Source: Aliivibrio fischeri ES114 (GTDB taxonomy: Bacteria; Pseudomonadota; Gammaproteobacteria; Enterobacterales; Vibrionaceae). Taken from it: DNA of 32,000 bases. Below are positions 369 to 26,841 of the stretch, one piece after another. Under the pieces are notes generated by a model that was not told the DNA's origin, did no database searches, and saw nothing but the letters and a program-made list of their open reading frames with translations. The translations under genes and the position numbers were made by a program. Each line of letters opens with the position of its first letter. Positions within the stretch are counted from its first letter, which is position 1. The stretch lies in the NCBI RefSeq assembly GCF_000011805.1, contig NC_006840.2; one strand, written 5' to 3'.

Positions 369-2612
369 TTAAAGACCTTTCACATACTGATTATGTGTAT
401 TAATAGGTACCATTGAATATAACGCTTCTTGAACCGCAGTTTCACCTTTAACCAGAGCCTCAAAGTGCGTTGCTAACTTAACAATATCCGCTTGTTCTTT
501 AGAACCACCACCAATATTAGTTAAATCAATAAAGAATTCATCAAACAAATCAGATAAATCATTAACGACATCCATGTTTAAAAACTGCTCATGGTTATAA
601 ATACTTGGGTAGCCACCTTTTTGCTTATCTACAGCAAAAGAGACCCCTTTCATGTTCGTAATAGTTGTCGCTTTTTCACACTTAATCATACAACCCGCTT
701 CAATCGCACGCTTATTACAACCAACCGTTTGTTGGAAGAAGCATTGACGACTTGTCATCAACAAAATTGGATGATAAATGCTGTAAAGTAACTTAAAGTT
801 TTCAGGACGACGAATGTGTTTCATTTGTCCTTGATTTATTTCATTAGAAATGAACGCACCAGCACAATTAAACTCTTCTTTTAGTGTAATTAATGCGTGT
901 GAGTTGGTGGTATTCATGAATGGACCCGCAACCCACTCAATTCCCATTTCATAAGCTTTATAAGCAATACCTGTATTATTAGTAACAATACGTGCAGGTT
1001 TCACTTCTTCAAGGAATTTCACAGCTTCATTATAATCTTTACCAATCAATACCGCAGGGAACCATGGGATCAATCTTGGATTTTCTGAGAAGATGTTGAT
1101 GTACGTTTTATCATTGCGTCTAAAACTTTCTGGTAACTTAAAGTAAATATCTGCATCAGTAGCATCACATATTTTTAAGTCGGCAATATCTGCGATAAGC
1201 ATAGATAGCTTAGGTTGCTGTTCAACTTTCGGCTTCTGAGCTAATTTTGGTAATTCAACATGTTTAATAACGGCTTTATTTCCATTTAAACGATACGCAA
1301 TCTGATCTTTTAGATCTGAAAGTTCTTTAAAAGGCAGGATTAAACCTTCATCAACTTGAGAAAAATCATAGCCAGAGAACTCATAATCGCTATTAGAAAC
1401 CCCTTTAAAGCGTTTCTCTAGCTCTTTTTGTGTAATTGACTTCTCACCAGCAGCCATAAGTAACGATGTCGATTCTAATTCAAAGATCTCTTTTGAAGTT
1501 GCTACCACCACTTTTAATGGACTATCAAGCTGTGCTTTAAATGCAATGGATAATGGCAGTTTTGAAATATCCAGATCTTGAATTTTCTCACGTAGCTCTT
1601 CACCAAGATTGTCTTTTGCTGCGTTCAATTCAGCTTTAACATCATGAATTTGAACCACATCAATGGCATTACTTTTCTCTACCGCATGAGTAACACTGTG
1701 ATCTCTAGGGTTATCGATGAACATGTCTTTGGTTAAGTTACCAGTCAAAAATGAATTGGTAAAATCACGGTTAAACACTTTGTGAAGGTTTGAATCATCT
1801 TCTAATAAATCGCCAGACTCGATGAATTTATTGATGTTTTTGCGCCAATTATCAATAACCGTATAAACGTAATGAGAGCCTTTAATACGCCCTTCTACTT
1901 TTAAAGAATCAACTTTAGCATCAACCAGATCTGGCAAATCAAAATACGCTGAGTTGTCTTTTAAGTTTAGAGGGTATTTGTTACCAACCGCGGTTTCTTC
2001 GTATTCATCACGACATGCTTGGCTACAACGGCCACGGTTACCTGAGTTACCCGCACTTACTGATGTTGAATAACATTGACCAGAAAATGCAATACATAGT
2101 GAACCATGAACAAACACTTCGGTTAGCACATCGTGCTCATGAGCAACAGCAGTCAGTGATTTCACTTCTTCAATATTTAGTTCACGAGATAAATTAACAC
2201 GAGAAGCCCCTAACTTAGCTAAGAACTTAATTTGTCCTTCATTATGCGTAGTTAATTGCGTTGAAGCGTGAACATCGAGTGTTGGGAAGTATTTTTTCAC
2301 TAAATCAAACATCGCTAAATCTTGCACAATAATGCCGTCAACTGATGTATTCACTAGTTGATTAAGTAATTTAGCAATGCTTTTAATTTCATGTTCAAGA
2401 AGAACAATATTCAAAGTAAGGAATACTTCACAGCCATGCTCATGAGCAAGGCGTAAAATACCAGTCAATTCATCAAATGAGAGATTGGATGCACGGTTAC
2501 GGGCGTTAAATACATCTAAGCCACAATAAACGGCATTTGCCCCTGCTACGATGGCCGCCTTTATCGCTTCTACATCACCGCCGGGTGCCAATAATTCAAG
2601 TTTTCTGCTCAT
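369..2612 (-). CDS. U32-family (peptidase U32 / PrtC-like) Fe-S protein with two tandem U32-like halves, possibly RlhA-like
   Basis: Long ORF. The N-terminus MSRKLELLAPGGDVEAIKAAIVAGANAVYCGL is typical of U32 proteins (compare E. coli YhbU and YegQ). Cys motif C-x6-C-x15-C-x3-C (CIAFSGQCYSTSVSAGNSGNRGRCSQAC) sits in the first half and C-x7-C-x8-C-x3-C (CFFQQTVGCNKRAIEAGCMIKC) in the second. I prefer the ATG at 2612 over the GTG at 2627 by N-terminal alignment with family members. Confidence 0.85.
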   Translation of the reverse strand: MSRKLELLAPGGDVEAIKAAIVAGANAVYCGLDVFNARNRASNLSFDELTGILRLAHEHGCEVFLTLNIVLLEHEIKSIAKLLNQLVNTSVDGIIVQDLAMFDLVKKYFPTLDVHASTQLTTHNEGQIKFLAKLGASRVNLSRELNIEEVKSLTAVAHEHDVLTEVFVHGSLCIAFSGQCYSTSVSAGNSGNRGRCSQACRDEYEETAVGNKYPLNLKDNSAYFDLPDLVDAKVDSLKVEGRIKGSHYVYTVIDNWRKNINKFIESGDLLEDDSNLHKVFNRDFTNSFLTGNLTKDMFIDNPRDHSVTHAVEKSNAIDVVQIHDVKAELNAAKDNLGEELREKIQDLDISKLPLSIAFKAQLDSPLKVVVATSKEIFELESTSLLMAAGEKSITQKELEKRFKGVSNSDYEFSGYDFSQVDEGLILPFKELSDLKDQIAYRLNGNKAVIKHVELPKLAQKPKVEQQPKLSMLIADIADLKICDATDADIYFKLPESFRRNDKTYINIFSENPRLIPWFPAVLIGKDYNEAVKFLEEVKPARIVTNNTGIAYKAYEMGIEWVAGPFMNTTNSHALITLKEEFNCAGAFISNEINQGQMKHIRRPENFKLLYSIYHPILLMTSRQCFFQQTVGCNKRAIEAGCMIKCEKATTITNMKGVSFAVDKQKGGYPSIYNHEQFLNMDVVNDLSDLFDEFFIDLTNIGGGSKEQADIVKLATHFEALVKGETAVQEALYSMVPINTHNQYVKGL

Positions 2613-13762: not shown

Positions 13763-14419
13763 ATGAAAATTTTAGTTGTAGAAGATGACTTACGTTTAGG
13801 CGCACAAATTGTAGAAACCCTAGAGTCTGCCGATTGGGTTCCTGAGTTATCACAAGATGGTGTTGATGCATTATATAGAGCAACAACTGAGGAATGGGAT
13901 GCTATTGTTCTTGATTTGGGCTTACCAAAATTAAATGGCCTAACGGTACTAAAAAGCATTCGTGATGAAAACATTAACACGCCCGTTATTATTTTAAGTG
14001 CTCGTGATACGTTATCACAACGTGTTGAAGGCTTAAATGCAGGCGCAGATGACTACTTAACTAAACCGTTTGAAATGGTGGAATTGATTGCTCGCATTCG
14101 TGCTCAATTACGTCGAGCCTCTGGCAATGCCTCCCCTATTTTAAAAATTGGTGATTTAAGCTTAGATACCCGCAGTTCCAAAGTTCTGTGGCAAGACCAA
14201 GCTGTAAGCCTGACAGCATTGGAATACAAGGTCGTTGCTTATTTCATGCACAATCCAGATAAGGTGATCTCTAGAACGACACTTGTTGAACATATCTATA
14301 AGCAAGATTTTGATCGTGATTCAAATACCGTTGAAGTATTTATTGGCCGAATTCGTAAAAAAATAGCGCCAAATATCATCAAAACCGTACGTGGTCTTGG
14401 TTATCAATTAAACTCATAG
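13763..14419 (+). CDS. OmpR/PhoB-family response regulator
   Basis: 218 aa. The REC domain reads MKILVVEDD...IVLDLGLPKLNG...KPF, and the winged-helix C-terminus reads LTALEYKVVAYFMHNPDKVISRTTLVEHIY...RGLGYQL. Confidence 0.92.
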   Translation: MKILVVEDDLRLGAQIVETLESADWVPELSQDGVDALYRATTEEWDAIVLDLGLPKLNGLTVLKSIRDENINTPVIILSARDTLSQRVEGLNAGADDYLTKPFEMVELIARIRAQLRRASGNASPILKIGDLSLDTRSSKVLWQDQAVSLTALEYKVVAYFMHNPDKVISRTTLVEHIYKQDFDRDSNTVEVFIGRIRKKIAPNIIKTVRGLGYQLNS

Positions 14420-14437
14420 AGCAAATCAAGGATAACG

Positions 14438-15802
14438 ATGAAAAAGGCACCCCGTCGTCTTCAACATACATTAAAAAAATTAAGTTTAAAAAGCCGCTTG
14501 CTTCTTGCTGCGGCTTTTTGGCTATCTTCAATGATTTTAGCGGCTGGCATTGGTATTCCAAAACTAGTCAATGATTATCTGATTAAAGATGTAAAACAAC
14601 AATTAGCCTTATCTATGGATGAAATCACGGCTAATTTAGAAACCAACGAACAAGGAAAGTTAGTTTTATTCTCTCGACTTTCTGATCCTCGTTTTAATCA
14701 GCCTTATAGCGGTCTATACTGGACTGCAAGTACCAAAAAAGATGAACTGCGTTCTCGTTCTTTATGGGATAAGAAGCTAAAATTTAAAGACAATTCTTTA
14801 GATATCGCTCCTACAGTAAAGGGAGCAAAAGACGAAAAACTTATCTATATTCAAAAACACATATACCTTCCAGAAATTAAAGCACCAATAACAATAACCA
14901 TTGGTGTGGATGAAAATCCCTTAGAAAAAACATTACACCAATTAACAGGACAAGTTTGGGTTATCTTAGGATTACTATTTAGCGGTGTTTTATTCCTTAT
15001 TGGTATTCAAGTCAGTTGGTCTTTACGCCCACTTGCTAAAATGCAATCTGAACTTATTCAACTGCGCAAAGGAGAACAACAAAATTTAAGCCAACACTAC
15101 CCTCAAGAAATAGCCCCTTTGGTTTCGGATCTCAATGCGCTTTTATTTCATTATCAAGAATTACTGGATCGTGCTCGTAACCATGCAGGCAACTTATCTC
15201 ATTCTTTAAAAACACCACTATCCGTCCTTAAAAATGAGTTAGAGCATTTAAGCGAAGAGGATAAAAAGCGCTTATCTCTGCCTATTAATAAACTTCAAGA
15301 GCACATCGACTACCATTTAGGCCGTGCTCGCATGGCTGGATCAATGAATATTTTATCTGTTTCAACCTCTCCATCCGATCGTGTTGATGCCATATCAATG
15401 GCTTTTGATAAAGTCTATGCTGTTCGTGAAATCATGTTAATTAACGAACTTAATAGTGATGACAATATTGCCGTAGAAGCAACAGATCTTGATGAAATGC
15501 TTGGTAATTTACTCGAAAATGGCTATAAGTGGGCAAGTTCTATGATTCGTGTTCATTCAAAATACGCTGCTGACAATCTCATTGAAATCACGATCGAAGA
15601 TGATGGAAATGGCATACCAGAAGATAAACTAGAGCACGTAATTCGACGAGGTGTACGTCTGGATGAATCAACCCCAGGTACAGGGCTTGGTTTAAATATT
15701 GTAGACGAAATGGCACACAGCTACCGCGGTTCATTGCTTTTAGATAGAAGTAAAATGGGCGGCTTAAAAGCAACCCTCACCTTTCCACTGGTGACTAATT
15801 AA
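14438..15802 (+). CDS. Sensor histidine kinase (PhoQ/PmrB-like architecture: TM-periplasmic-TM-HAMP-HisKA-HATPase)
   Basis: 454 aa. H-box is NLSHSLKTPLSVL, N-box LLENGYKWA, and G-boxes DDGNGIP and GTGLGLNIV. The periplasmic segment contains DPRFNQPYSGLYW. An AAGGA SD lies upstream. Confidence 0.9.
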   Translation: MKKAPRRLQHTLKKLSLKSRLLLAAAFWLSSMILAAGIGIPKLVNDYLIKDVKQQLALSMDEITANLETNEQGKLVLFSRLSDPRFNQPYSGLYWTASTKKDELRSRSLWDKKLKFKDNSLDIAPTVKGAKDEKLIYIQKHIYLPEIKAPITITIGVDENPLEKTLHQLTGQVWVILGLLFSGVLFLIGIQVSWSLRPLAKMQSELIQLRKGEQQNLSQHYPQEIAPLVSDLNALLFHYQELLDRARNHAGNLSHSLKTPLSVLKNELEHLSEEDKKRLSLPINKLQEHIDYHLGRARMAGSMNILSVSTSPSDRVDAISMAFDKVYAVREIMLINELNSDDNIAVEATDLDEMLGNLLENGYKWASSMIRVHSKYAADNLIEITIEDDGNGIPEDKLEHVIRRGVRLDESTPGTGLGLNIVDEMAHSYRGSLLLDRSKMGGLKATLTFPLVTN

Positions 15803-18081: not shown

Positions 18082-18264
18082 ATGAAAGTGATAATTCAAT
18101 ACACTCAAACAGGTATGTATAAAGACCATGCATGGGAAGCATCTACAATTAGAATTCAGGGACAGTATCATGCAGTTACGCCATCCTATGCCGCTCAACT
18201 TATCGAACAAAATAAAGCACAGTTACACACCGATAATAGCAATAATATTGTGTTAGTTGATTGA
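18082..18264 (+). CDS. Small hypothetical protein (60 aa)
   Basis: ATG at 18082 follows AAGGAG with a 6-nt spacer. Translation is MKVIIQYTQTGMYKDHAWEASTIRIQGQYHAVTPSYAAQLIEQNKAQLHTDNSNNIVLVD. I recognise no family. Confidence 0.45.
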   Translation: MKVIIQYTQTGMYKDHAWEASTIRIQGQYHAVTPSYAAQLIEQNKAQLHTDNSNNIVLVD

Positions 18265-18304
18265 TTTAAAGATTGAAAATTCGATTGGAATTTGATGATT
18301 TATC
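18259..18304 (+). repeat. Four tandem 11-12 bp GATTG-type repeats
   Basis: The units are GATTGATTTAAA, GATTGAAAATTC, GATTGGAATTT and GATGATTTATC. They start at the last codons of the small ORF. Confidence 0.5.
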
Positions 18305-18326: not shown

Positions 18327-18352
18327 AAGCCACACGTCTCAAAATGTGGCTT
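18327..18352. terminator. Hairpin, a possible bidirectional terminator
   Basis: Stem AAGCCACA (18327-18334) / TGTGGCTT (18345-18352). The minus-strand reading is followed by the T-rich TCCTTTCTCTTTTTATCTT; the plus-strand U-tract is weak. Confidence 0.45.
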
Positions 18353-18508
18353 AATTTGGAACTGTTCGGGGTCATAACCGGACGTGTTAACTATCTAATA
18401 TCACTGACTTAATTTCAACAGTTTTTGTGAACACAATGGTCAGAAAAAGTACAAATTTTGAAGTTGTTCCGTATTTTGTGAGTCGTGTAACACTAATTAG
18501 CTTGCTAC

Positions 18509-20551
18509 TCAACCTACCAAATTATGATATTGCTGTTCTTCTGTCTTTGTTGGCAAATAGATCGTAAAGACGGTTCCCTTTCCAAGTTGTGATCTCACTT
18601 TAATTTCACCACCAGTTTGACTTAATAAACTTTGAGAAACAGATAAACCAAGCCCTGTTCCATCACGCTTTGTTGTATAGAACGGGTCAAAAATTCGATT
18701 CAATTGTTCGCCAGCAATACCACATCCAAAATCTTCTACTTCTATAATCGCACCAAACTCAACCCCTTCATGACACCAAGTTCGACTACGAATGATAAGT
18801 TTACCTTTACTGTTCATCGCATGGATGCCATTCATTTGCAGATTGACTAATACTTGCAATAAATGATGGCGATTCACTTCCACTCTTGGTGGCTGCTCAA
18901 AATCAAACTCAACCTCAATATCTCGTTTGTGAGCCCCTGTACGAACTAAGGTAACGCTTTCTTCAATGATTGGATTAATGTATTGCCATGTCACCTCATC
19001 TTGAATCCCACCTTGTCGACTGTACTGCAATAAACTACGAGTGATATTACGGATTCGGTCTATTTGCTCCATAATGGTTTCTAGCTCTTCAGCTATTACG
19101 TGGGCCTCTTCACCTAATTCATATTTAATTAATTCTGCATTACCTAGAATAACAGCTGTAGGATTATTAATTTCATGAGCAATACCAGCAGTCAACTCAC
19201 CAAGTGATGCCAATTTTTCACTCATTACCAGCTTATCTTGAGCTTGTTTTAGCAATTTTATGTATTGCTCTAATTCCACTGTCTTTTCATGCAAACTTGC
19301 CGTTCTTGATTCAACTTTTGACTCTAACTCTTTAGATGCCCTTTGGATCTCTAAATTTCGTAACTGAAGTTGATCAAGCATATTGTCAAACTGCTGCGCT
19401 AAGCTGGCCAGTTCATGACTATTATCTAATCCTAAGTCCCCAATTCGAACATCTTTACCTAATTGGACAGACTTTACTACAAAGTGAATTTTTTCGATCG
19501 GTTGAAATAGATCTCGAGCTCCTCGATGCACAAAAAAGGTCGACAATAATAACGTAATAAGAATGGTGATCCCTGCTTCAAGCAAGTTTTGTAAATACTG
19601 TTTTAATAGCGGCCACTCTAAATAGCCGGTATAAAGCATTCCAATCACATCTCCATTCATATCTTTAATCGGTTGATATGCTGAAATGTACCAATCATTG
19701 TAAACATAAGCTCTATTTACCCATCGCTCTCCAGCACCAATAACTTGTGCTTTCACTTCTGGAGATACTTTGGTTCCAATAGCACGGCCTTGGTTTAGCT
19801 CTTTATTTGCAAAATCAGTATGCAGTGGAACGTTGGTACTAATACGAAGTCCATCTAAAAATAACGTTACTGTCCCTATATTATTGGATGGTAAATCGCC
19901 TGATGGATAGATCAAATCACGGATTCTATCGACAAGTAATGTGCTGTTATTTAATATAATTCCACTATCGACAATCCAAGTTAACGTCCCTTTATTATCA
20001 AAAATTGGTATTAACGTTCGGCTAATCAAACCACGCTTTTCTATACTTCCATCTTCTTTGTTAGTCACCCAAACCTGTTGTTTCAGTTTAGGATTAATAT
20101 CCGCTAACTCTTTTTCAGACATGACTTGAAAGAAGGTTCGTGACATACCAATCTTCATATCATTGACTAAAGAAGAAGGTAGCTCATTCATATAAGAGAT
20201 TGGATGTAACGCAATAAAATCAGAGTTGTATTTCCCCGCTTGTTGCGAAACCCACAACTCAAAATCAGGTGCTTTATTTTCAAACTTTTTTTGAAAATAA
20301 TACGATTCTACAAAGCCTCTCAATTCTGCGCTTTGCTCTCGCTGTAAAAAATCAATACTGTTATTGGCAACAGATAATTTACTACCAACATCATTCAGTG
20401 CATTTTGCCAAGTATAATGTGTAGACCAAAATGCAGTAATGATCACGAGAGCGAGTAAGGTTAAGAATAATGGAACCGAGTTCAACCAAAGTAAGCGATA
20501 ACGCACCATGGTTTTAATGCGTTTTTTCCAAACCGTCGGAGATAGCGTCAT
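18509..20551 (-). CDS. Sensor histidine kinase with a large (about 280 aa, double-Cache-sized) periplasmic domain, HAMP, coiled coil, HisKA and HATPase
   Basis: H-box is GELTAGIAHEINNP (NtrB/AtoS type), and G-boxes are DFGCGI and GTGLGLSVS. Two TM segments flank a long periplasmic region. I prefer the ATG at 20551 because it forms an ATGA overlap with the upstream regulator's stop codon. Confidence 0.9.
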   Translation of the reverse strand: MTLSPTVWKKRIKTMVRYRLLWLNSVPLFLTLLALVIITAFWSTHYTWQNALNDVGSKLSVANNSIDFLQREQSAELRGFVESYYFQKKFENKAPDFELWVSQQAGKYNSDFIALHPISYMNELPSSLVNDMKIGMSRTFFQVMSEKELADINPKLKQQVWVTNKEDGSIEKRGLISRTLIPIFDNKGTLTWIVDSGIILNNSTLLVDRIRDLIYPSGDLPSNNIGTVTLFLDGLRISTNVPLHTDFANKELNQGRAIGTKVSPEVKAQVIGAGERWVNRAYVYNDWYISAYQPIKDMNGDVIGMLYTGYLEWPLLKQYLQNLLEAGITILITLLLSTFFVHRGARDLFQPIEKIHFVVKSVQLGKDVRIGDLGLDNSHELASLAQQFDNMLDQLQLRNLEIQRASKELESKVESRTASLHEKTVELEQYIKLLKQAQDKLVMSEKLASLGELTAGIAHEINNPTAVILGNAELIKYELGEEAHVIAEELETIMEQIDRIRNITRSLLQYSRQGGIQDEVTWQYINPIIEESVTLVRTGAHKRDIEVEFDFEQPPRVEVNRHHLLQVLVNLQMNGIHAMNSKGKLIIRSRTWCHEGVEFGAIIEVEDFGCGIAGEQLNRIFDPFYTTKRDGTGLGLSVSQSLLSQTGGEIKVRSQLGKGTVFTIYLPTKTEEQQYHNLVG

Positions 20552-21975
20552 GCGTTTTCTTCGCTCCACTCTTTAAACTTACGCTCTAAAGTTTTACGAG
20601 CAACCCCCAACTGCCTTGCAGCTGCAGATTTATTACCATCATGAAGATCCACGACAGTGATGATGTGTGATTTTTCCACTTCTTTTAATGTCCATTTTTC
20701 TGGGTAAGTATCTAAGATAGGCATACAAGTACACTCGCCTTCTTTATTCCTTGATGCGTCATCATTTTTATTCTGTTCATTGTCTTGATGAATTGGCTCA
20801 TCACCTTGTAGTTCAGCCCAATGTTCAACAGGTGGTTTGCCTAATAAAATACAGCGTTCAATCATGTTTTTAAGCTCACGGATATTACCCGGCCAATCGT
20901 AATTTGCCATTGCGACGATATCTTCATGAGCCCAATGCACAGGTTTTACTCCCATTTCACTCGCAATCATTTGAGAAAAATGCTCAGTTAAACATGCAAG
21001 ATCCGCTTTTCGCTCTCGTAATGCTGGTAGAGAAACCGTCAAAACATTTAAACGATAAAATAAATCTTTTCTGAAATTTCCTTTTTCCACTTCTTCTAAT
21101 AAATTACGGTTAGTAGCAGCAACAATACGAACATCAACAGGAATTTCTTTTTCAGAGCCTACAGGTCTAATGGCTTTTTGCTCTAACGCTCGCAGCAACG
21201 ATGATTGCATTCCAATTGGCATTTCACCGATTTCATCTAAAAACAGTGTCCCACCATTCGCAACTCTGAATAAACCCTCACGCCCTTTCTTAGCACCAGT
21301 AAACGCACCAGAAGTATGCCCAAACAATTCACTTTCAAGTAAGTCAGGAGCAATAGCCCCGCAGTTTAATGGTACAAACGGCCCTTTGCGTTCACTTAAT
21401 TGGTGCAAACCACGAGCAACTAACTCTTTACCTGTTCCTGATTCACCTTCAATTAATACAGCTGCATTAGATGGAGCAAGTTGAGCAACCATTTTCTTTA
21501 GTTGTAACGTTTTCTCTGCATTACCGATGATCTCAATCGGATTCTTCTTCTCGACTTCTCTTTTTAAAGCAAAGTTTGTTCGCTCAACTAAACGACGATC
21601 CATGCATCGTTTTACTGCTTGTAGCATGTTTTCAAGATTAAACGGTTTTAAAATAAAATCAGATGCGCCAAGTCGAAGTGCTTGAATCGCCGTATCTAAC
21701 TCCGCATAACCTGTCATGAAAATCACATCATAATTACGCGCATCACATGCAATGCTTTCTTGCCACTCTAAACCTGTTTGACCTGGTAAGTTAATATCAA
21801 GAATGATTAAATCAAGATGGTGAGATTGTCGAATTTCTTCTGCTTCTTCAATCGTACCTGCGGTATGCACTTGTCCAAATTGTTTACTTAATGCTTTTTT
21901 TAGTATGGTTTGCATACCAATTTCATCATCAACAACAAGAACTGAAAACGCATTCCAATCTGATTTTACAACCAT
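20548..21975 (-). CDS. Sigma54-dependent (NtrC-family) response regulator
   Basis: The REC domain reads VLVVDDE...LIILDINLPG. The AAA+ domain has Walker A GESGTGKE and the sigma54-contact motif GAFTGA. The C-terminus has the Fis-type HTH AAARQLGVARKTLERKFKEW. An AGGA SD lies upstream. Confidence 0.92.
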   Translation of the reverse strand: MVVKSDWNAFSVLVVDDEIGMQTILKKALSKQFGQVHTAGTIEEAEEIRQSHHLDLIILDINLPGQTGLEWQESIACDARNYDVIFMTGYAELDTAIQALRLGASDFILKPFNLENMLQAVKRCMDRRLVERTNFALKREVEKKNPIEIIGNAEKTLQLKKMVAQLAPSNAAVLIEGESGTGKELVARGLHQLSERKGPFVPLNCGAIAPDLLESELFGHTSGAFTGAKKGREGLFRVANGGTLFLDEIGEMPIGMQSSLLRALEQKAIRPVGSEKEIPVDVRIVAATNRNLLEEVEKGNFRKDLFYRLNVLTVSLPALRERKADLACLTEHFSQMIASEMGVKPVHWAHEDIVAMANYDWPGNIRELKNMIERCILLGKPPVEHWAELQGDEPIHQDNEQNKNDDASRNKEGECTCMPILDTYPEKWTLKEVEKSHIITVVDLHDGNKSAAARQLGVARKTLERKFKEWSEENA

Positions 21976-22009
21976 ATTTATTCCTAATAAGATCTAAAGT
22001 GTTATGTGG

Positions 22010-22082
22010 GTCAAAATGTCCTAATTATTCTAACCTGTTATTCGCAAAATGTATCCTTTCTATTGCGACATTTTGTCCTAAT
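22010..22082 (+). promoter_or_regulatory. Candidate upstream activator sites: three related motifs sharing CAAAATGT..CCT / TGTCCTAAT
   Basis: The three copies are GTCAAAATGTCCTAAT (22010-22025), GCAAAATGTATCCT (22044-22057) and GACATTTTGTCCTAAT (22067-22082). The last contains the dyad GACA-N3-TGTC. They lie about 90-160 bp upstream of the -24 element. Confidence 0.4.
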
Positions 22083-22169
22083 CACATTTTTTGTAAGGTT
22101 TTTATGTAAGAATCCAATTCAACCACTTAAATATCATTACGTTAAGTGTGTGTTTAAAGGCATTATACT

Positions 22170-22185
22170 TGGCATAGTGATTGCT
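22170..22185 (+). promoter_or_regulatory. Sigma54 (-24/-12) promoter of the tupA operon
   Basis: TGGCATAGTGATTGCT has GG at 22171-22172 and GC at 22183-22184, exactly the GG-N10-GC spacing. It matches consensus TGGCAC-N5-TTGCW at all but one position and lies about 70 nt upstream of the tupA ATG. Confidence 0.7.
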
Positions 22186-22256
22186 TTAGTGGGTACGAGT
22201 CTATTCACTTCAGAGCATTATGCTTTGCAAGTTAAACTTCATTACATGGATATAAC

Positions 22257-23078
22257 ATGAACAATAAAATTAAGACATTTTCTGCAGTTGCTGCACTGGC
22301 TTTAGGTTCTTTCTCTGCGACTGACGTATACGCTAATGACGCAAACGTTGTACGTTTAGCAACGACAACAAGTACTTACCACTCAGGCTTATTAGATTAC
22401 CTTCTTCCAGAATTCCAAAAAGATTCAGGCTACGAAGTTCAAGTTCTTGCTGCTGGTACTGGTAAAGCATTGAAAATGGGCGAAAATGGCGATGTTGATT
22501 TAGTAATGACTCACGCACCAAAAGCTGAAGCAAACTTTGTTGAAAAAGGCTACGGTGTTGAGCCAAAATCACTGATGTACAATGACTTTGTGCTAGTAGG
22601 TCCTAAAGCTGACCCTGCTCATATTCACGGTATGAAAGACGTTACTGCAGCATTCAAAAAAATGGCTGAATCTGACGTAACTTTCGTATCACGTGGCGAT
22701 GATTCTGGTACAAACAAAAAAGAATTGAATCTTTGGGCTCAAACTAAAATTGAACCAAACTTCGGTGGTTATAAAGCCGTTGGTCAAGGTATGGGTCCAA
22801 CACTAAACATGACTTCTGAACTACAAGCTTATACCTTAACAGACCGTGGTACTTGGTTAGCTTACCAGAACAAACTTGATCTTGAGATCATGGTTGAAGG
22901 TGATAAACGTCTATTCAACCCTTACCAAGTAATTCTAATTAACCCTGAGCGTTACAAAAACCTAAACACAAAAGGTGCGCAAGCATTCAGTGATTGGTTA
23001 GTAAGCGATAAAGGTCAGGCAATGATTAATAGCTTCAAACTGAATGGTAAACAACTGTTCACTGCGGACGCTAAATAA
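22257..23078 (+). CDS. tupA: Tungstate/molybdate ABC transporter periplasmic binding protein, TupA type
   Basis: The ORF has a signal peptide. The TupA hallmark RLATTTSTYHSGLLDYLLPEF (TTTS motif) is followed by AAGTGKALKMGENGDVDLVMTH. Confidence 0.85.
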   Translation: MNNKIKTFSAVAALALGSFSATDVYANDANVVRLATTTSTYHSGLLDYLLPEFQKDSGYEVQVLAAGTGKALKMGENGDVDLVMTHAPKAEANFVEKGYGVEPKSLMYNDFVLVGPKADPAHIHGMKDVTAAFKKMAESDVTFVSRGDDSGTNKKELNLWAQTKIEPNFGGYKAVGQGMGPTLNMTSELQAYTLTDRGTWLAYQNKLDLEIMVEGDKRLFNPYQVILINPERYKNLNTKGAQAFSDWLVSDKGQAMINSFKLNGKQLFTADAK

Positions 23079-23081
23079 TAC

Positions 23082-23780
23082 ATGACTATTTTAGCCACCT
23101 CTCAAGAGGCAATTCAATTACTGTTTAGTGGTGATACTGCATTATGGAGCATCGTAGGTGTTTCATTTTCTGTATCCCTATTTGCAATGGCAGTTGTATT
23201 ATTACCTGCTCTTTTGTTGGCATTTGCGCTTGCTTATGGATCTTTTCCTGGGCGGTGGCTATTACTTTCTATTATGAATACATTGCAATCCGTGCCCACC
23301 GTTGTTATTGGGTTGCTACTGTATATGATGCTTTCTCGTGCTGGCCCATTAGGTGACTGGCAACTACTCTTTACCCAAGAAGCAATGGTTATTGGACAGA
23401 TATTTATCTGTTTTCCAATTATGGTCGCTATGATGCATGGTGCATTTCAGCACAGTGACCGTCGTGTTTGGGAAACCTCATTCACGCTTGGTGCTTCACT
23501 TCCACGCGCATTTGGCAGCTTAATTTGGGAGACTCGCTTCCCTATTTTAGCCGCTGTAATCGCTGGATTTTCTCGTATAATTACTGAAGTAGGTTGTTCA
23601 ATGATGGTTGGTGGTAACATCTTCAACTCTACTCGAAATATTCCAACTGCGATTGCAATGGAAAGCCAAAAAGGCGCATTTGCACAGGGTGTTGCTCTTG
23701 GTATGGTGTTATTAGTTTTAGCACTCGTTTTAAACTTTTTACTCTCTATCACTCGTGGTAAAGGGTATTTACGTACTTAG
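23082..23780 (+). CDS. tupB: Tungstate ABC transporter permease
   Basis: 232-aa polytopic ORF starting 3 nt after tupA, with an ABC permease (BPD_transp_1-like) pattern. Confidence 0.8.
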   Translation: MTILATSQEAIQLLFSGDTALWSIVGVSFSVSLFAMAVVLLPALLLAFALAYGSFPGRWLLLSIMNTLQSVPTVVIGLLLYMMLSRAGPLGDWQLLFTQEAMVIGQIFICFPIMVAMMHGAFQHSDRRVWETSFTLGASLPRAFGSLIWETRFPILAAVIAGFSRIITEVGCSMMVGGNIFNSTRNIPTAIAMESQKGAFAQGVALGMVLLVLALVLNFLLSITRGKGYLRT

Positions 23781-23793
23781 TAGGCATATAACG

Positions 23794-24501
23794 ATGACAA
23801 TTAGAATAACTGCCGATAATCTATCTATGCGATTTAACGATCGTGTGCTTTTTCATATCCCTCATTTATCTCTTGGGCCAAAAGAATCCGTTTATTTACG
23901 TGGCGCAAATGGCGTAGGTAAAACCACTCTACTCAAAATCTTATCGGGTCTGCAAACCGCGACAACAGGTAAGATCAACCTTGACCAACCTCACTGGTCT
24001 GTTCGTCTACTTGGCCGTTCAGGTAACAATCAAATCGTTTATTTGCATCAGAATCCATTTCTTTTTGATGGTACGGTTTATGACAATGTCATTTACGGTG
24101 TGAAATACACAGCGATGAGCAAGCAAAACAAACGTAATATGGTGATCAACGCCTTACGTATGGTTGGACTTGAAACCTTAGCTGACGAACATATTTCTGT
24201 TTTATCTGGTGGTGAAAAACAACGTGTCGCTATGGCTCGAGCTTGGGTATTAAAACCGTCTATTTTGCTAATGGACGAACCAAGTGCTAGTGTTGACCAA
24301 GAGTCCATCGATTTATTAGTAATTATGGCTAAAGATCTACTTGATCGTGGCTCTAGCATTGTCGTTACCAGCCACCAAACCAATGCCTTAACTGAAATTT
24401 GTCATCGTCAATGGACCATTTCAGATGCAAAGCTGATAGAATCAACCCCATTAAAAGTGATTGTTAGCAAGGATAAGTATGCTCCAGCCAAAGCAAACTA
24501 G
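23794..24501 (+). CDS. tupC: Tungstate ABC transporter ATP-binding protein
   Basis: Walker A is GANGVGKTT, the ABC signature is LSGGEKQRV, and Walker B is ILLMDEP. I prefer the ATG at 23794, which lies after the tupB stop, over the GTG at 23755. Confidence 0.85.
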   Translation: MTIRITADNLSMRFNDRVLFHIPHLSLGPKESVYLRGANGVGKTTLLKILSGLQTATTGKINLDQPHWSVRLLGRSGNNQIVYLHQNPFLFDGTVYDNVIYGVKYTAMSKQNKRNMVINALRMVGLETLADEHISVLSGGEKQRVAMARAWVLKPSILLMDEPSASVDQESIDLLVIMAKDLLDRGSSIVVTSHQTNALTEICHRQWTISDAKLIESTPLKVIVSKDKYAPAKAN

Positions 24502-25063
24502 TTGGGTAATTTTAGCGGGTGGGCAAGCTCGTCGTATGGGTGGAAAAGATAAAGGGTTTGTTTTATTTCAAGATAAAGCACTCATCGAGCACGCTCTAGA
24601 CACATTGACATCTCAAACTGACCAAATTGCCATTAATGCTAATCGCAGTATTGAAGAATACTCACGTTACGCTGTCACCTTCCCTGACCAATTTAGTGAA
24701 TACCCAGGGCCTTTAGCGGGTATGCATTCTGGTCTTGTAAATATGAATTCTGACTGGGTTGGGTTTATTCCATGTGATTCCCCTAACCTACCAAACAATT
24801 TAGTTTCTTTGCTTTGTAATGCCGTCAAAGAAGATACTGATATTGTGGTAGCTCACGATGGTGAGTACATGCAACCGGTTGTCACTTTAATGCACAAACG
24901 TATTATTCCAAAAATTGATGCCTTTTTAACGCGTGGAGACAGAAAAATCATCCTATTATACAAAGAGTGTAATACTGTATTTGCTGATTTCTCTGACTAC
25001 CCTAACGCGTTTATCAATTTGAATAGTCCTCAAGAACTTGAACAATTTGGAACTTTATTATGA
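24479..25063 (+). CDS. mobA: Molybdenum cofactor guanylyltransferase
   Basis: VILAGGQARRMGGKDKGF, YPGPLAGM and PCDSP align with E. coli MobA. Starting at ATG 24479 after AAGGA gives 194 aa, the E. coli length. The gene overlaps the tupC 3' end by 23 nt. Confidence 0.9.
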   Translation: MLQPKQTSWVILAGGQARRMGGKDKGFVLFQDKALIEHALDTLTSQTDQIAINANRSIEEYSRYAVTFPDQFSEYPGPLAGMHSGLVNMNSDWVGFIPCDSPNLPNNLVSLLCNAVKEDTDIVVAHDGEYMQPVVTLMHKRIIPKIDAFLTRGDRKIILLYKECNTVFADFSDYPNAFINLNSPQELEQFGTLL

Positions 25064-26841
25064 GCTTAACGTCTGCGTCTATCCCTCTATTGGGTTTTGC
25101 TGCTTATAGCGGCACAGGTAAAACAACATTACTTGAAAAACTGCTGCCTAAACTGACTGATATGGGACTAAAAGTCGCAGTCATTAAACACGCTCATCAT
25201 AATTTTGATATCGACCAAGAAGGCAAAGACAGCTACCGCTTACGTAAAGCGGGCGCTAGCCAAATGTTGATCAGTTCACGTTTTCGCAATGCCTTGATCA
25301 CTGAAACCCCCGATGAAGAAACAACATGTCAGCAGTTAATCAATAAACTCGATCAAACTGAATTAGACTTAATTCTTATTGAAGGGTTTAAACAACTACC
25401 ATCCACCAAGATTGAATTGCATCGTAATGAAATCGGCAAGCCTTGGATTTTCCCAGAAGATGAAAACATCATTGCGATTGCCTCGGATTTAAAAGCCGAC
25501 TCTGAACTGCCTCAAATGGACATCAATGATACCGATTCAATCACGCAATTCATTGTTGACTACGTCAAACAACATCAGCATAAACAGCAAAGTGACCTAT
25601 CCGCCAACTGCGATGAGTTATCCCCTGCGTTTTTATCTGTTAGTCAAGGCAGAGCTAAGATTTTAGAGGCGATCACTCCACTAAATTCACAAAGTGATGT
25701 CTCTTTAGTTGAGTCGATTAATGCATTAGCCGCTCAAGATATTTTATCACCGATTAATGTTCCCCAACATAACAATTCAGCAATGGATGGCTATGTGATT
25801 TGTGGTGATGATTTAGAGTGTGAAAGCTATACGGTCGTTGCCGAAATCATGGCAGGTCACAGCTATGATCGCCCTCTTCAACATGGTGAAGCAGCTAAAA
25901 TCATGACGGGGGCGCCAGTACCTGAAAATGGTCATGCCGTGATCATGCGAGAACAAGCGACTCAAGAAGGTGATCAAGTACGCTTCGATGCGGGTAAATC
26001 AGGCATTCGTAAAGGCCAAAATGTTCGTCTAGCCGGTGAAGATCTGGCTATCGATCAGATCTGTGTGGCTAAAGGTTCACGTATTACAGCACCTGAAGTG
26101 GGTATGCTTGCGTCTTTAGGCATTGCTTCTGTTCCTGTTATCGCTAAAACAAAAGTAGCTATCTTCTCGACTGGCGATGAAGTTCAAGCACCAGGTGAAG
26201 CACAAAAAGCCAACTCTATTTACGACTCAAACCGTTTTACTTTAACGGCATTACTGCAAAAATTAGGCTGTGAAGTGATTGATTTCGGTATCATTGAAGA
26301 CAGTGAAGCCGCTTTAGAATCAACGCTTTCTCAAGCATCACAACAAGCAGATATGATTTTATCTTCTGGTGGTGTGTCGGTTGGTGATGCGGACTACATC
26401 AAAACGATTTTAGACAAACTGGGCAATATTAATTTCTGGCGTATCAATATGCGTCCGGGACGCCCTCTTGCCTTTGGTCATATTGGTGATACGCCATTCT
26501 TCGGTTTACCGGGTAACCCTGTAGCAGTAATGGTGGCGTTCTTACAGTTTGTCGAGCCTGCACTTCGCAAACTTCAAGGCGAAGATAATTGGCAGCCTGA
26601 AACCTTTACTGCAATTGCAAAAGAGTTTATTCGTTCTCGCACTGGCCGAACTGAATACAGCCGTGGTATTTACTCTATTAACCAAAATGGTCAAATGGAA
26701 GTCGTAACCACAGGCAAACAAGGCTCTGGTATTTTACGTTCAATGAGTGAAGCCAACTGCTTAATTGAAGTGCAACCAGAAGTTGAGTCGGTAGATATTG
26801 GTCAGAAAGTGACGATCATTCCGTTGAGTTCGAGAGTGTAG
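25060..26841 (+). CDS. mobB/moeA: Fused MobB (MGD biosynthesis adaptor, P-loop) / MoeA (molybdopterin molybdenumtransferase)
   Basis: The N-terminal ~170 aa align with E. coli MobB (LLGFAAYSGTGKTTLLEKL...KDSYRLRKAGA). The remaining ~410 aa align with MoeA (NSAMDGY, MTGAPVP, SSGGVSVGDADY, GLPGNPV). It is one uninterrupted frame with no in-frame ATG at the junction, and the start forms an ATGA overlap with the mobA stop. Confidence 0.9.
   Translation: MSLTSASIPLLGFAAYSGTGKTTLLEKLLPKLTDMGLKVAVIKHAHHNFDIDQEGKDSYRLRKAGASQMLISSRFRNALITETPDEETTCQQLINKLDQTELDLILIEGFKQLPSTKIELHRNEIGKPWIFPEDENIIAIASDLKADSELPQMDINDTDSITQFIVDYVKQHQHKQQSDLSANCDELSPAFLSVSQGRAKILEAITPLNSQSDVSLVESINALAAQDILSPINVPQHNNSAMDGYVICGDDLECESYTVVAEIMAGHSYDRPLQHGEAAKIMTGAPVPENGHAVIMREQATQEGDQVRFDAGKSGIRKGQNVRLAGEDLAIDQICVAKGSRITAPEVGMLASLGIASVPVIAKTKVAIFSTGDEVQAPGEAQKANSIYDSNRFTLTALLQKLGCEVIDFGIIEDSEAALESTLSQASQQADMILSSGGVSVGDADYIKTILDKLGNINFWRINMRPGRPLAFGHIGDTPFFGLPGNPVAVMVAFLQFVEPALRKLQGEDNWQPETFTAIAKEFIRSRTGRTEYSRGIYSINQNGQMEVVTTGKQGSGILRSMSEANCLIEVQPEVESVDIGQKVTIIPLSSRV

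Follow-up and report, generated by a model that had tools for sequence, protein, structure and literature searches.

Organization of the locus

We analysed a 32-kb stretch of Aliivibrio fischeri ES114 DNA, hereafter the window, in which a response-regulator gene and a sensor-kinase gene are transcribed divergently from a tupABC-mobA-mobB/moeA cluster (Table 1). The regulator gene and tupA are separated by 281 bp, which form the divergent control region. The order regulator-kinase on one side and tupABC-mobA-mobB/moeA on the other is retained in every orthologous locus long enough to show it.

Table 1. Genes and regulatory features of the tup locus of A. fischeri (positions are those of the window)
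Feature	Position	Strand	Description
Sensor histidine kinase, 686 aa	18509-20569	-	two TM segments, periplasmic region of about 280 aa, HisKA, HATPase_c
NtrC-type response regulator (bEBP), 475 aa	20548-21975	-	REC, AAA+ with GAFTGA, Fis-type HTH
Distal dyad TGGGTCAAAATGTCCTA	22007-22023		2 mismatches to TGNGACA-N3-TGTCNCA; centre 156 bp 5′ of the -24 GG
Weak middle site or half-site ATTCGCAAAATGTATCC	22040-22056		core CAAAATGT; centre about 123 bp 5′ of the GG
Proximal dyad TGCGACATTTTGTCCTA	22064-22080		1 mismatch to TGNGACA-N3-TGTCNCA; centre 99 bp 5′ of the GG
IHF-like string ATTCAACCACTTA	22117-22129	+	between dyads and promoter
IHF-like string TATCATTACGTTA	22132-22144	+	between dyads and promoter
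Sigma-54 promoter TGGCATAGTGATTGCT	22170-22185	+	-24 GG 22171-22172, -12 GC 22183-22184; predicted TSS about 22195-22197
Block GAGTCTATTC	22197-22206	+	predicted transcript start
tupA	22257-23078	+	periplasmic tungstate/molybdate-binding protein
tupB	23082-23780	+	permease; NCBIfam ABC_perm1 192 bits (cut-off 100), TupB 164 bits; Pfam BPD_transp_1
tupC	23755-24501	+	ATPase; Pfam ABC_tran; TupC and other ABC ATPase models below cut-offs
mobA	24461-25063	+	NCBIfam MobA 213 bits (cut-off 152)
mobB-moeA fusion	25060-26841	+	NCBIfam MobB/MoeA bifunctional 1004 bits (cut-off 532)

The initial annotation had read the divergent genes as a sigma-54 activator bearing a GAFTGA motif and its kinase, and the Pfam matches bear this out. 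Indeed, the regulator combines Response_reg, Sigma54_activat (229 bits), AAA_lid_14 and HTH_8, the domain content of a bacterial enhancer-binding protein (bEBP), with GAFTGA visible in its translation, and the kinase combines Cache, HisKA and HATPase_c domains. The regulator scores below all NCBIfam equivalog cut-offs (AtoC 386 against 714, NtrC 385 against 558.6, LuxO 330 against 800, ZraR 328 against 760), and its sequence places it in none of the named bEBP groups (NtrC, AtoC, ZraR, LuxO, GlrR, FlgR and others). By elimination, it is probably VF_1401 of strain ES114, which appears without a name among the class I bEBPs in PMC10162802. Six class I enhancer-binding proteins are counted in V. 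fischeri, VF_1401 among them. In the open-access literature that we searched, both VF_1401 and V. cholerae VC1522 are unnamed. A single-protein genome scan with the regulator gave only Aliivibrio orthologues and unrelated enhancer-binding proteins. One locus considered as a variant lacking tupABC (L073) was rejected: it holds a paralogous system whose dyad is different and NtrC-like.

On the other side of the control region, the tupA product is identified from its sequence as a TupA-family tungstate/molybdate-binding protein. Its PDB matches are VP1501 of V. parahaemolyticus (3muq, 409 bits), TupA of D. alaskensis (5my5, 233 bits) and a Geobacter TupA (3lr1, 228 bits), and alignment to 5my5 and 3muq reveals TTTS, taken as the criterion for TupA, together with HAP, SRGDxSGT and TDRGT. 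The residues equivalent to H59, R118, T124 and D170, listed as tungstate-binding in D. alaskensis TupA (PMC5517513), are all present. The NCBIfam TupA score of 255 lies below the equivalog cut-off of 400; the VP1501/3muq subgroup, to which this protein belongs, was classed as TupA by Otrelo-Cardoso et al. (PMC5517513). In terms of binding, the TupA family is defined by picomolar affinity for tungstate and nanomolar affinity for molybdate. Further downstream, the products of mobA and the mobB-moeA fusion are predicted to insert the metal into the molybdopterin cofactor and to guanylylate it, which completes bis-MGD synthesis. These two genes are probably in the same operon because their coding regions overlap one another, and a simple scan 3′ of position 26841 detected no terminator-like site.

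A conserved sigma-54 promoter upstream of tupA

The GG-N10-GC element that the initial annotation had placed about 70 nt upstream of tupA is found there, and all the strings quoted in that annotation are at their given positions: TGGCATAGTGATTGCT lies 73 nt from the tupA ATG at 22257 and has the exact 10-bp GG/GC spacing of a sigma-54 promoter. It is the sole zero-mismatch match to TGGCAY-N5-TTGCW in a scan of the 32-kb window, where a simple base-frequency estimate predicts about 0.06 by chance; when one mismatch is allowed, two further matches appear, for a total of 3 against 3.0 expected from shuffles. In 11 Aliivibrio sequences, the -24 and -12 elements are invariant and two spacer positions vary. 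More generally, the promoter, the upstream motifs and the IHF-like strings are invariant blocks across these sequences, separated by intervening DNA that varies. Conservation of the -24/-12 element in orthologous loci had been proposed as a check, and an exact TGGCAY-N5-TTGCW, oriented toward tupA, is present in all 52 of the orthologous loci that span the region. These come from Aliivibrio, Photobacterium, Moritella, Vibrio and metagenomes, and represent 50 distinct promoter regions.

Beyond its sequence, a sigma-54 promoter is defined by the presence of bound RpoN, by transcription that depends on RpoN and by a start site about 12 nt 3′ of the GC. In V. cholerae, the orthologous locus VC1521/VC1522 - VC1523-27 has the same gene order as in A. 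fischeri and carries TGGCATCCCATTTGC at the equivalent place. This counterpart was found as an RpoN site by ChIP-seq, and VC1523-27 drop together, 5.4- to 2.1-fold, in the rpoN-deleted condition (Dong & Mekalanos 2012, PMC3439928). Locus L060 of our set carries TGGCATCCCATTTGC plus three other published RpoN sites in the expected order. The proposal that tupA is driven by a sigma-54 promoter is thus supported both by the conservation in 52 loci and by the V. cholerae data, and we regard the control region of tupABC-mobA-mobB/moeA as holding, by its sequence, a genuine and strongly conserved sigma-54 promoter. The transcription unit starting from it probably includes mobA and mobB-moeA besides tupABC. 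Sigma-54 control of the tup operon is not new in itself, as it was already published for V. cholerae. No enhancer-binding protein, upstream site or signal was attributed to VC1523-27 in that study (PMC3439928).

A scan of the intergenic region for sigma-70 promoters and terminators yielded nothing convincing, with one weak sigma-70-like site at 22241-22270. At the predicted transcript start, the TCTATT of GAGTCTATTC is invariant and its flanks nearly so in the 11 Aliivibrio sequences; this conservation is limited to Aliivibrio, and the other genera diverge. At Rfam gathering thresholds, the tupA leaders of the window and of six further loci contain no RNA family, including the Moco riboswitch. 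The sole Rfam match in this search was V_AS5, located elsewhere in L060.

Dyads and IHF-like strings in the control region

Three related elements had been reported upstream of the promoter. All three are present, and they are better described as 17-bp dyads with the consensus TGNGACA-N3-TGTCNCA, the middle one being a weak half-site; the GACA-N3-TGTC noticed earlier in the last element turns out to be the core of this conserved dyad. The distal dyad TGGGTCAAAATGTCCTA lies 32-48 bp from the response-regulator start codon and is invariant in the 11 Aliivibrio sequences. The core of the middle site, ACATTTTG, is read on the minus strand at 22045-22052; its CAAAATGTAT is invariant in Aliivibrio and the CC that follows varies in one of the 11 sequences. 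Finally, TGCGACATTTTGT, the core of the proximal dyad, recurs in Photobacterium, Moritella and Vibrio. In 32 kb there are six copies of the shared core ACATTTTG against 3.6 expected, and three of these copies fall within 64 bp, at 22012-22075.

In 655 kb of metagenomic orthologous loci, dyads with zero or one mismatch occur 73 times, against about 1.4 expected from base frequencies. Most of them (62/73) sit 37-207 bp 5′ of a sigma-54-like promoter, and in the orthologous loci dyad centres lie 67-156 bp 5′ of the -24 element. Dyad symmetry, a position about 70-160 bp 5′ of the -24 element and co-occurrence with sigma-54 promoters are the features by which upstream activating sequences of bEBPs are recognized, and these dyads display all of them.

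An IHF-like string had also been pointed out at 22132-22144. It is indeed found there, and this string and its neighbour ATTCAACCACTTA each have one mismatch to WATCAANNNNTTR. Taken alone, such strings are at chance level, since the window holds 89 matches with at most one mismatch against 76 +/- 10 in shuffles, and we rejected the consensus match as stand-alone evidence. Their placement is more regular: among the 50 distinct promoter regions, IHF-like matches cluster 45-49 bp (25 loci) and 30-39 bp (22 loci) 5′ of the GG. The defining bases of both strings are invariant in Aliivibrio, and it is ATTCAACCACTTA, not the string first pointed out, whose position is kept in the other genera.

Dyads at formate dehydrogenase promoters

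The same dyad is also found away from the tup locus. In all ten of the Vibrionaceae loci that contain a formate dehydrogenase (FDH) operon (nine of Vibrio type and one unplaced), a dyad with zero or one mismatch and two weaker sites lie about 80 bp 5′ of the FDH sigma-54 promoter, and in Vibrio loci the FDH promoters show the three-site layout seen 5′ of tupA. The operon encodes an Fe-S protein, a chaperone and the FDH alpha subunit of a Tat-exported, respiratory enzyme, and no regulator gene adjoins it. The dyad scan detected no good dyad near the sigma-54 promoters of fdhD and VC1518-17. In A. fischeri, FDH genes are not adjacent to the tup locus, whereas they adjoin it in V. cholerae; we found none in the window or in the 10 kb beyond its right end. 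An attempt to extend past the right end by way of a 530-aa gene ended in an AbgT-family transporter, and not in the ABC-F gene that borders the Vibrio FDH cluster.

In published data on V. cholerae, the FDH operon neighbouring the tup locus is RpoN-dependent like the latter, by 22- to 69-fold (PMC3439928), and in a V. parahaemolyticus rpoN mutant it is down by log2 3.2 to 4.75 (PMC9817140). In a gel-shift assay, the VP1510 promoter was not retarded by purified V. parahaemolyticus RpoN, and the authors called the control indirect (PMC9817140), a reading that we ascribe to their having had no activator to test. VC1510-18 and VC1523-24 have also been seen to rise jointly in riboflavin-pathway mutants (PMC5816637). 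Altogether, we consider it likely that the regulator encoded beside tupA also activates the respiratory FDH operon in Vibrio.

A putative formate site in the sensor kinase

The periplasmic region of the kinase, flanked by the two TM segments, comprises two modules, of which the membrane-proximal one is sCache_3_3-like. Pfam sCache_3_3 matches residues 206-325 with 93.5 bits over model positions 3-104 of 107, and Cache_3-Cache_2 matches in part (model positions 114-198 of 299). The formate-binding sCache family is marked by a full-length sCache_3_3 or a partial Cache_3-Cache_2 match, a signature that the kinase carries; every soluble member tested bound formate, micromolar affinity being the criterion for binding (PMC11804620). 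The chemoreceptors PacF, Atu0526, R3 (8PY1) and R6 (8PY0) (PMC11804620) share this signature with the kinase, and their Arg, two Thr and Tyr align with it; the A. fischeri protein differs from them in being a histidine kinase, at about 20% identity, in which formate binding is putative.

The sole PDB sequence matches of the sensor are the formate-bound sCache structures 8PY1 and 8PY0, and these matches are weak, with E-values of 0.002-0.03 over about 60-70 aligned residues. Four kinase residues match formate-site residues in the phmmer alignments: the arginine of RVSTN, a threonine at +3, the threonine in GT at +16 and the tyrosine in YxP. The RVSTN arginine aligns with index 106 of 8py1 and index 103 of 8py0, which are R118 and R111 under an inferred numbering offset. 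The equivalents of the four residues are the salt-bridge arginine (R118 in R3, R111 in R6, R142 in PacF), T145 and T158 of PacF, and the tyrosine Y167/Y160. In the kinase, these positions are R242, T245, T266 and Y298, and they are invariant in the orthologs. The second hydrogen-bonding threonine (T105 in R3, T100 in R6) falls N-terminal to the aligned stretch; T233 and T235, both invariant, are possible counterparts, with a different spacing. The AF2 model of the kinase (pLDDT 83) contains the two modules, and a Foldseek search with the whole sensor gave generic dCache similarity, with formate-bound domains among the top matches and having the highest identity (19-20%). A structure prediction of the module alone (residues 195-330) was unusable, with a pLDDT of 48. 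A protein search with the sensor domain gave 12 mostly fragmentary matches, which served to seed a structure alignment, and a profile from a seven-sequence sensor alignment brought no gain over the single-sequence search against the PDB.

From these alignments, the sensor looks more like a formate receptor than like a metal sensor, so that the link with the transporter is probably one of formate demand for the W/Mo cofactor rather than of W/Mo sensing. Whether the membrane-proximal module indeed binds periplasmic formate through R242, T245, T266 and Y298 is in our view an even call. The two-component system had been linked to tungstate/molybdate uptake from the outset; the regulatory link is supported, and it is the nature of the signal that we would revise, from the metal to a probable demand set by formate.

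The main alternative leaves the promoter, the dyads and the activator as described and has the kinase sense W/Mo scarcity, another small carboxylate or a periplasmic cue of redox state or anaerobiosis, FDH being co-regulated only as the main consumer of the cofactor. The marginal E-values of the formate-bound matches speak for it, as does the architecture of the sensor: the formate-like module is membrane-proximal, behind an extra distal module that has no recognisable ligand site, whereas the formate module of PacF is distal, and a five-residue insertion, in a stretch modelled with low confidence, lies beside the putative pocket in A. fischeri. The operon also begins with genes for a metal transporter. 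Moreover, the distant kinase homologues (27-43% identity; L083-L116) have no formate dehydrogenase within 10 kb and therefore give no independent support for formate sensing. Against this stand the identity and invariance of the four aligned formate-contact positions, formate binding by all soluble family members tested (PMC11804620), and the pairing of the transporter with FDH in the regulon in 10/10 loci. For a metal-type signal in particular, the tupA leader has no Moco riboswitch in Rfam, and the known W/Mo regulators (ModE, TunR and the Moco riboswitch) act as repressors in the cytoplasm or as RNA, none of them being a periplasmic Cache kinase. We thus judge a signal other than formate unlikely, though by no means negligible, and retain formate as the preferred input.

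Proposed assignment of the activator to the dyads

It is highly likely, judging from conservation and gene order, that the protein binding the dyads is the response regulator encoded divergently from tupA. The initial annotation had proposed that an NtrC-type system activates tupA through the upstream repeats, and this proposal gains support from the conservation of promoter, dyads and gene order in 52 loci and from the invariance of the HTH. The HTH of the regulator, GNKSAAARxLGVARKTLERK, shows no change between genera, in parallel with the constancy of the GACA/TGTC half-sites. The dyads could alternatively be operators of another protein, such as a repressor of the regulator-kinase promoter or a metal-responsive factor, the tupA promoter being fired by another bEBP from elsewhere or from solution. 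Such a reading would suit their location, which at 23-105 bp from the regulator start codon is closer to that codon than to the tupA promoter, and the wide range of their distances to the -24 element (67 to 156 bp). It is nonetheless very improbable, given that the pairing of 62/73 dyads with a sigma-54 promoter at an enhancer-like distance extends to the unlinked FDH operon that has no adjacent regulator gene, that no further regulator gene is conserved in the locus, that the HTH of the adjacent regulator is as invariant as the half-sites, and that the 17-bp geometry is that of NtrC-family operators. Because the dyads are only 23-105 bp from the start codon of the regulator, it can be speculated that the regulator bound there also autoregulates the regulator-kinase operon.

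The last alternative, that the -24/-12 match and the repeats arose by chance in AT-rich intergenic DNA and that tupA is read from a sigma-70 promoter, could appeal to the chance frequency of IHF-like strings and one-mismatch sigma-54 matches in the window and to the weak site at 22241-22270, but it is effectively refuted, with a probability next to nil, by the conservation of the -24/-12 element and dyads in 52 loci of four genera amid diverging intervening DNA and by the RpoN ChIP-seq and RNA-seq data on the V. cholerae ortholog (PMC3439928), besides the single exact match against about 0.06 expected.

Comparison with known systems and proposed mechanism

Our reading corresponds to a canonical sigma-54 mechanism with a new pairing of input and output. 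In DctB/DctD of rhizobia and in NtrB/NtrC, a kinase and a group I bEBP act through tandem upstream dyads on a sigma-54 promoter that drives an operon for transport or assimilation. The NtrC operator is a 17-bp dyad, and DctB is a two-module periplasmic PAS/Cache-like carboxylate sensor. These systems share with that of A. fischeri a two-component kinase and a bEBP on upstream dyads. The latter differs from NtrC in its half-sites (GACA/TGTC instead of GCAC/GTGC), in its sensor family, which is sCache_3_3-like, and in its regulon.

ModE, the LysR-type TunR of Desulfovibrio and the Moco riboswitch work at sigma-70 promoters of mod or tup operons, as repressors or RNA that respond to the metal or the cofactor. 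ModE and TunR thus resemble the present system in controlling a mod or tup transporter operon, and no ModE/TunR-type gene is present in the conserved neighbourhood of the orthologous loci. Here, in contrast, control of tup would be positive, sigma-54-dependent and probably driven by a substrate, formate, and not by the metal. A characterized sigma-54 two-component regulator of tupABC had been surmised to be lacking, which agrees with our searches of the open-access literature; these found no paper assigning an activator, or a sigma-54 two-component regulator, to tupABC.

Formate-responsive sigma-54 activation of FDH from upstream sites, tied to molybdenum supply, is known from FhlA of E. coli. 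FhlA is a one-component, cytoplasmic protein with GAF domains that binds formate itself and controls the cytoplasmic FDH-H and hydrogenlyase (fdhF, hyc, hyp). In the A. fischeri system, by comparison, a membrane kinase with a periplasmic Cache sensor would act on a REC-domain activator, the target FDH is Tat-exported and respiratory, and the regulon includes a tungstate transporter. An FhlA-like class is listed in PMC3162934.

We propose that the sigma-54 holoenzyme would wait on the tupA promoter as a closed complex. The Cache-domain kinase would phosphorylate the response regulator, which would then assemble on the dyads centred 99 and 156 bp upstream, between which the weak site is centred at 123 bp. 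By bending at the IHF-like strings, the DNA would bring the regulator to the polymerase, and the GAFTGA loop of the regulator would serve to open the promoter using ATP. Transcription of tupABC-mobA-mobB/moeA would follow, allowing tungstate/molybdate uptake and the final bis-MGD steps. Formate would thereby turn on, together, the enzyme that oxidises it, the uptake of the metal and the finishing of the cofactor. As a whole, this divergent sigma-54 switch, with an NtrC-type activator on the dyads, a formate input and a tup/mob/FDH output, is the explanation that we favour with reasonable confidence, and its regulon very probably includes formate dehydrogenase. What the analysis adds beyond the published RpoN data is the FDH dyad and the formate signal, which we infer. 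The advance is one of assignment and not of principle, the mechanism being textbook sigma-54 activation. More tentatively, the kinase may be the first histidine kinase with a formate-binding Cache domain, governing, with its sigma-54 activator, a single periplasmic formate regulon (the respiratory FDH, the high-affinity tungstate importer TupABC, and MobA/MobB-MoeA) in Vibrionaceae and Moritella; this is possible, and somewhat less probable to us than formate binding itself.

Implications

If this is true, uptake of a trace metal would be set by demand, via the substrate of the enzyme that uses it, and not by sensing of the metal, and the locus offers a testable case of substrate-driven against metal-driven control of W/Mo acquisition. 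It would also hint that the formate dehydrogenase of these marine bacteria is loaded with tungsten. Furthermore, our assignment would name the missing activator of two RpoN-dependent operons in V. cholerae and V. parahaemolyticus, and it would give the recently defined formate-binding Cache family a role in transcriptional control besides chemotaxis. For the squid symbiont, it equips the bEBP VF_1401 with a signal, an operator and a regulon, all of them predicted. Fermentation in the gut and in the squid light organ yields formate as a major product, and this circuit may therefore matter for host colonisation.

Organisation of the tup locus

The response regulator and tupA lie on divergent strands on either side of a 281-bp gap, and from tupA to the fused mobB-moeA the neighbouring genes abut or overlap. 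The TupA-like protein shares ~50% identity with the biochemically characterised TupA of Desulfovibrio alaskensis, keeps the TTTS motif and the equivalents of H59, R118, T124 and D170 (PMC5517513), and is orthologous to VP1501 of V. parahaemolyticus (PDB 3muq, 409 bits); its score against the NCBI TupA equivalog, 255 bits, is below the cut-off of 400.

Features of the divergent tup locus (window coordinates)
Feature	Position	Strand	Remarks
Histidine kinase	18509-20569	minus	periplasmic sCache_3_3-like domain, then HisKA, HATPase_c
NtrC-type response regulator	20548-21975	minus	REC, sigma-54 interaction AAA+ with GAFTGA, HTH_8
Distal dyad	22007-22023		two mismatches
Middle site	22040-22056		weak half-site
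Proximal dyad	22064-22080		one mismatch
Leader block GAGTCTATTC	22197-22206	plus	predicted +1 to +10; highly conserved in Aliivibrio
Leader block CATTACATGGATATAAC	22237-22256	plus	directly 5′ of the tupA ATG; highly conserved in Aliivibrio
tupA	22257-23078	plus	
tupB	23082-23780	plus	
tupC	23755-24501	plus	
mobA	24461-25063	plus	
mobB-moeA, fused	25060-26841	plus	

The regulator belongs to no named activator group. By elimination among the six class I enhancer-binding proteins of V. fischeri ES114 (LuxO, SypG, NtrC, FlrC, VpsR and the unnamed VF_1401; PMC10162802), together with NCBIfam scores, we infer that it is VF_1401. Its counterpart on L001, another contig with this locus, is 99% identical.

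A strain-variable island borders the locus: in A. fischeri strain GCA_001640525.1, an Hcp-VgrG-DUF4123-LysM type VI secretion cluster (L118 15092-21055) comes after an SEC-C-motif gene, where the window strain has mobB-moeA. On the other side, the 590-bp gap between kinase and glycosyltransferase contains an ORF of 60 codons (18083-18265) that has a good ribosome-binding site and is followed by a hairpin, AAGCCACACGTCTCAAAATGTGGCTT, at 18329-18353. A second, unrelated two-component pair (13763-15802; a 218-aa ORF, then a 454-aa histidine kinase-like ORF) is followed by a DedA-like membrane protein and a glycosyltransferase.

A sigma-54 promoter preceded by dyads

All strings quoted in the initial annotation were found in place, and the -24/-12 promoter that it proposed for tupA stands: TGGCATAGTGATTGCT, at 22170-22185, is the sole exact match to TGGCAY-N5-TTGCW within the 32-kb window, where matches with one mismatch occur at chance level. 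The three related upstream elements are also real. They share the core ACATTTTG, three of whose six window occurrences fall within 64 bp (another match comes from the hairpin at 18329-18353), and when both strands are read they are copies of a 17-bp dyad, TGNGACA-N3-TGTCNCA, of which the GACA-N3-TGTC already noticed is the core. In length and symmetry this dyad equals the classical NtrC operator. An IHF-like string is indeed present at 22132-22144, but by itself it is non-significant, with 89 such matches in the window versus 76 +/- 10 in shuffles; a second one adjoins it at 22117-22129.

In 11 aligned Aliivibrio intergenic regions, the -24 and -12 elements, the two dyads and the middle site, the bases that define the two IHF-like strings, GAGTCTATTC and the ribosome-binding region are fully or almost fully conserved, in contrast to the freely varying DNA between these blocks. 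Outside Aliivibrio the two leader blocks are not conserved, and neither has an Rfam match. The dyads always lie 23-105 bp from the regulator start codon, and a -10-like hexamer, TAGAAT, can be read by eye on the minus strand between sites 1 and 2; the regulator-kinase operon could therefore plausibly be autoregulated, though this is speculative.

Dyad-like 17-mers also occur inside mobB-moeA. In the window, TGGGACTAAAAGTCGCA (25163-25179, two mismatches) codes for MGLKVA of MobB. In Photobacterium/Moritella-type loci, TG[CA]GACAATTTG[AT]CCC[AC] is conserved ~0.7 kb into the coding sequence (L041 4679-4695, L043 1433-1449, L044 4664-4680, L045 4659-4675, L072 4684-4700, L076 4686-4702, L081 4672-4688), with no sigma-54-like promoter 37-207 bp away. 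Such 17-mers may reflect coincidence within coding sequence or serve as internal sites for the regulator.

Conservation across genera

The comparison was extended to orthologous loci in Vibrio alginolyticus, V. alfacsensis, Photobacterium profundum, P. leiognathi, P. damselae and Moritella, whose regulators show 66-70% identity. The divergent gene order, an exact TGGCAT-N5-TTGCT 5′ of tupA and the dyad core TGCGACATTTTGT are kept in all of them. With the kinase sensor domain as seed, a metagenome scan gave 46 further orthologous loci; gene order is unchanged in each contig long enough to tell, and upstream of tupA there is always an exact -24/-12 element together with a dyad of 0-1 mismatch. 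Conservation of the promoter and repeats, which the initial annotation had singled out for comparison, extends through Vibrio, Photobacterium, Moritella and the metagenome loci.

Relative to the GG of the -24 element, dyads in the 50 distinct promoter regions are centred 67-156 bp upstream and IHF-like matches cluster 45-49 bp and 30-39 bp upstream; paired dyads are spaced by 45 bp in Vibrio-type loci and 57 bp in Aliivibrio. The 655 kb of metagenomic loci contain 73 dyads with 0-1 mismatch versus ~1.4 expected from base frequencies, 62 of them 37-207 bp upstream of a sigma-54-like promoter. The regulator helix-turn-helix, GNKSAAARxLGVARKTLERK, does not change across genera. Conserved dyads, promoter, gene order and helix-turn-helix together argue for the adjacent NtrC-type system as the probable activator, as had been suggested.

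A paralogous two-component system (L073 5109-10210; regulator 52% and kinase 47% identical) adjoins mobA and mobB without tupABC. There, a sigma-54 promoter, TGGAATGGTATTTGCT, lies 3′ of the kinase and is preceded by two NtrC-like dyads, GCACC-N5-GGTGC; its operator is therefore different, and probably its regulon too.

Formate dehydrogenase as a probable second target

Sigma-54 control of the tupA operon is supported but not new, as the V. cholerae ortholog VC1523-27 is RpoN-bound and RpoN-dependent (Dong & Mekalanos 2012, PMC3439928). The same study reported this also for three neighbours, VC1516-10 (formate dehydrogenase, with a 22- to 69-fold dependence), VC1519 (fdhD) and VC1518-17. VC1522, the divergent regulator of V. 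cholerae, appears in the open-access papers searched solely as an unnamed response regulator, and no activator, operator or signal for the tupA operon is assigned in the open-access literature searched, in agreement with the earlier remark that no sigma-54 two-component regulator had been characterised for tupABC.

L060, a contig from V. cholerae or a very close relative, carries each of the four published RpoN sites, arranged as reported. Some 80 bp 5′ of its formate dehydrogenase promoter, TGGAACGCTATTTGCT, is a perfect dyad, TGAGACATAATGTCTCA, with two weaker copies ahead of it; the genes after the promoter encode a 4Fe-4S protein, a TorD/NarJ-type chaperone and a Tat-signal, Cys-type, molybdopterin formate dehydrogenase alpha subunit. 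The succession of a dyad (0-1 mismatch), a -24/-12 element ~80 bp downstream and the Fe-S gene recurs in 10/10 loci that include the upstream region of this operon. We propose that formate dehydrogenase probably shares the tup operator and regulon, at least in Vibrio. Independent transcriptomes agree with shared control: in V. cholerae, riboflavin-pathway mutants show a joint rise of VC1510-18 and VC1523-24 (PMC5816637), and the V. parahaemolyticus cluster VP1510-15 is down by log2 3.2 to 4.75 in an rpoN mutant (PMC9817140).

The divergent sigma-54 promoters of fdhD and the DUF3305/DUF3306 genes (VC1518-17) lie ~65 bp apart (L060 14841-14936), with no dyad of 0-1 mismatch near them; the closest copy to the fdhD promoter, AGAGTCAATATGTCGCA (two mismatches, L060 15136-15152), is ~290 bp away inside VC1518. 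The same contig has a match to the Vibrio antisense RNA AS5 (Rfam V_AS5, 2074-2198, minus strand, 101.8 bits), unrelated to the present finding. In A. fischeri, where fdnI is VF_1358, the formate dehydrogenase genes are absent from the window and from 10 kb beyond its right end.

The kinase sensor

The sensor matches Pfam sCache_3_3 over its full length and Cache_3-Cache_2 in part, the signature of monomodular formate-binding Cache domains (Monteagudo-Cascales et al. 2025, PMC11804620). Among all PDB sequences it matches only 8PY1 (R3) and 8PY0 (R6), both formate complexes (PMC11804620), weakly but specifically (E = 0.002-0.03). With the Photobacterium ortholog as query, which is without a 5-residue insertion seen in the Aliivibrio kinase, the alignment reaches the Arg of the conserved R-[IV]-S-T-N-V-P-L motif. 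Using an offset to the published numbering inferred from the spacing of named residues, the salt-bridge Arg (R3 R118, R6 R111, PacF R142) aligns with R242 of the A. fischeri kinase, PacF T145 with T245, PacF T158 with T266 and the Tyr (R3 Y167, R6 Y160) with Y298. These four residues are invariant in a seven-genus kinase alignment. The fifth formate contact, R3 T105, falls upstream of the stretch aligned with 8PY1 and 8PY0, and no counterpart was placed.

Modelled by AlphaFold (pLDDT 83), the periplasmic region consists of a long helix followed by two PAS-like modules, the membrane-proximal one being formate-like. Foldseek returned generic dCache sensors, the formate-bound domains being among the top matches and having the highest identity of these (19-20%). 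Though weak, the match fits a regulon with formate dehydrogenase, and formate sensing by this kinase would be about an even call.

Proposed mechanism

Periplasmic formate would bind the kinase, and the regulator would be phosphorylated and assemble on the dyads. An IHF-type bend could then carry it to the sigma-54 closed complex, and ATP hydrolysis would open the promoter for transcription of tupABC-mobA-mobB/moeA and, at least in Vibrio, of the respiratory formate dehydrogenase operon.

This sigma-54 activation is canonical and works as in NtrBC and DctBD. The E. coli FhlA formate regulon is alike in function, whereas here periplasmic two-component sensing would be coupled to a respiratory enzyme. 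The system also differs from the known tup/mod regulators ModE, TunR and the Moco riboswitch, which respond to metal or cofactor and act negatively; none is present at the locus (Rfam for RNA). The initial observation is confirmed and its interpretation supported, part of it being already published for V. cholerae; the putative operator, the assignment of the adjacent regulator, the candidate formate dehydrogenase co-regulon and the possible formate sensor are new.

Smart et al. reportedly found in 2009 that the formate dehydrogenase of Campylobacter jejuni receives its tungsten through TupABC. The physiological sense of the proposed circuit would be that the substrate induces formate dehydrogenase together with the import of metal and with the MoeA/MobA steps completing its bis-MGD cofactor.
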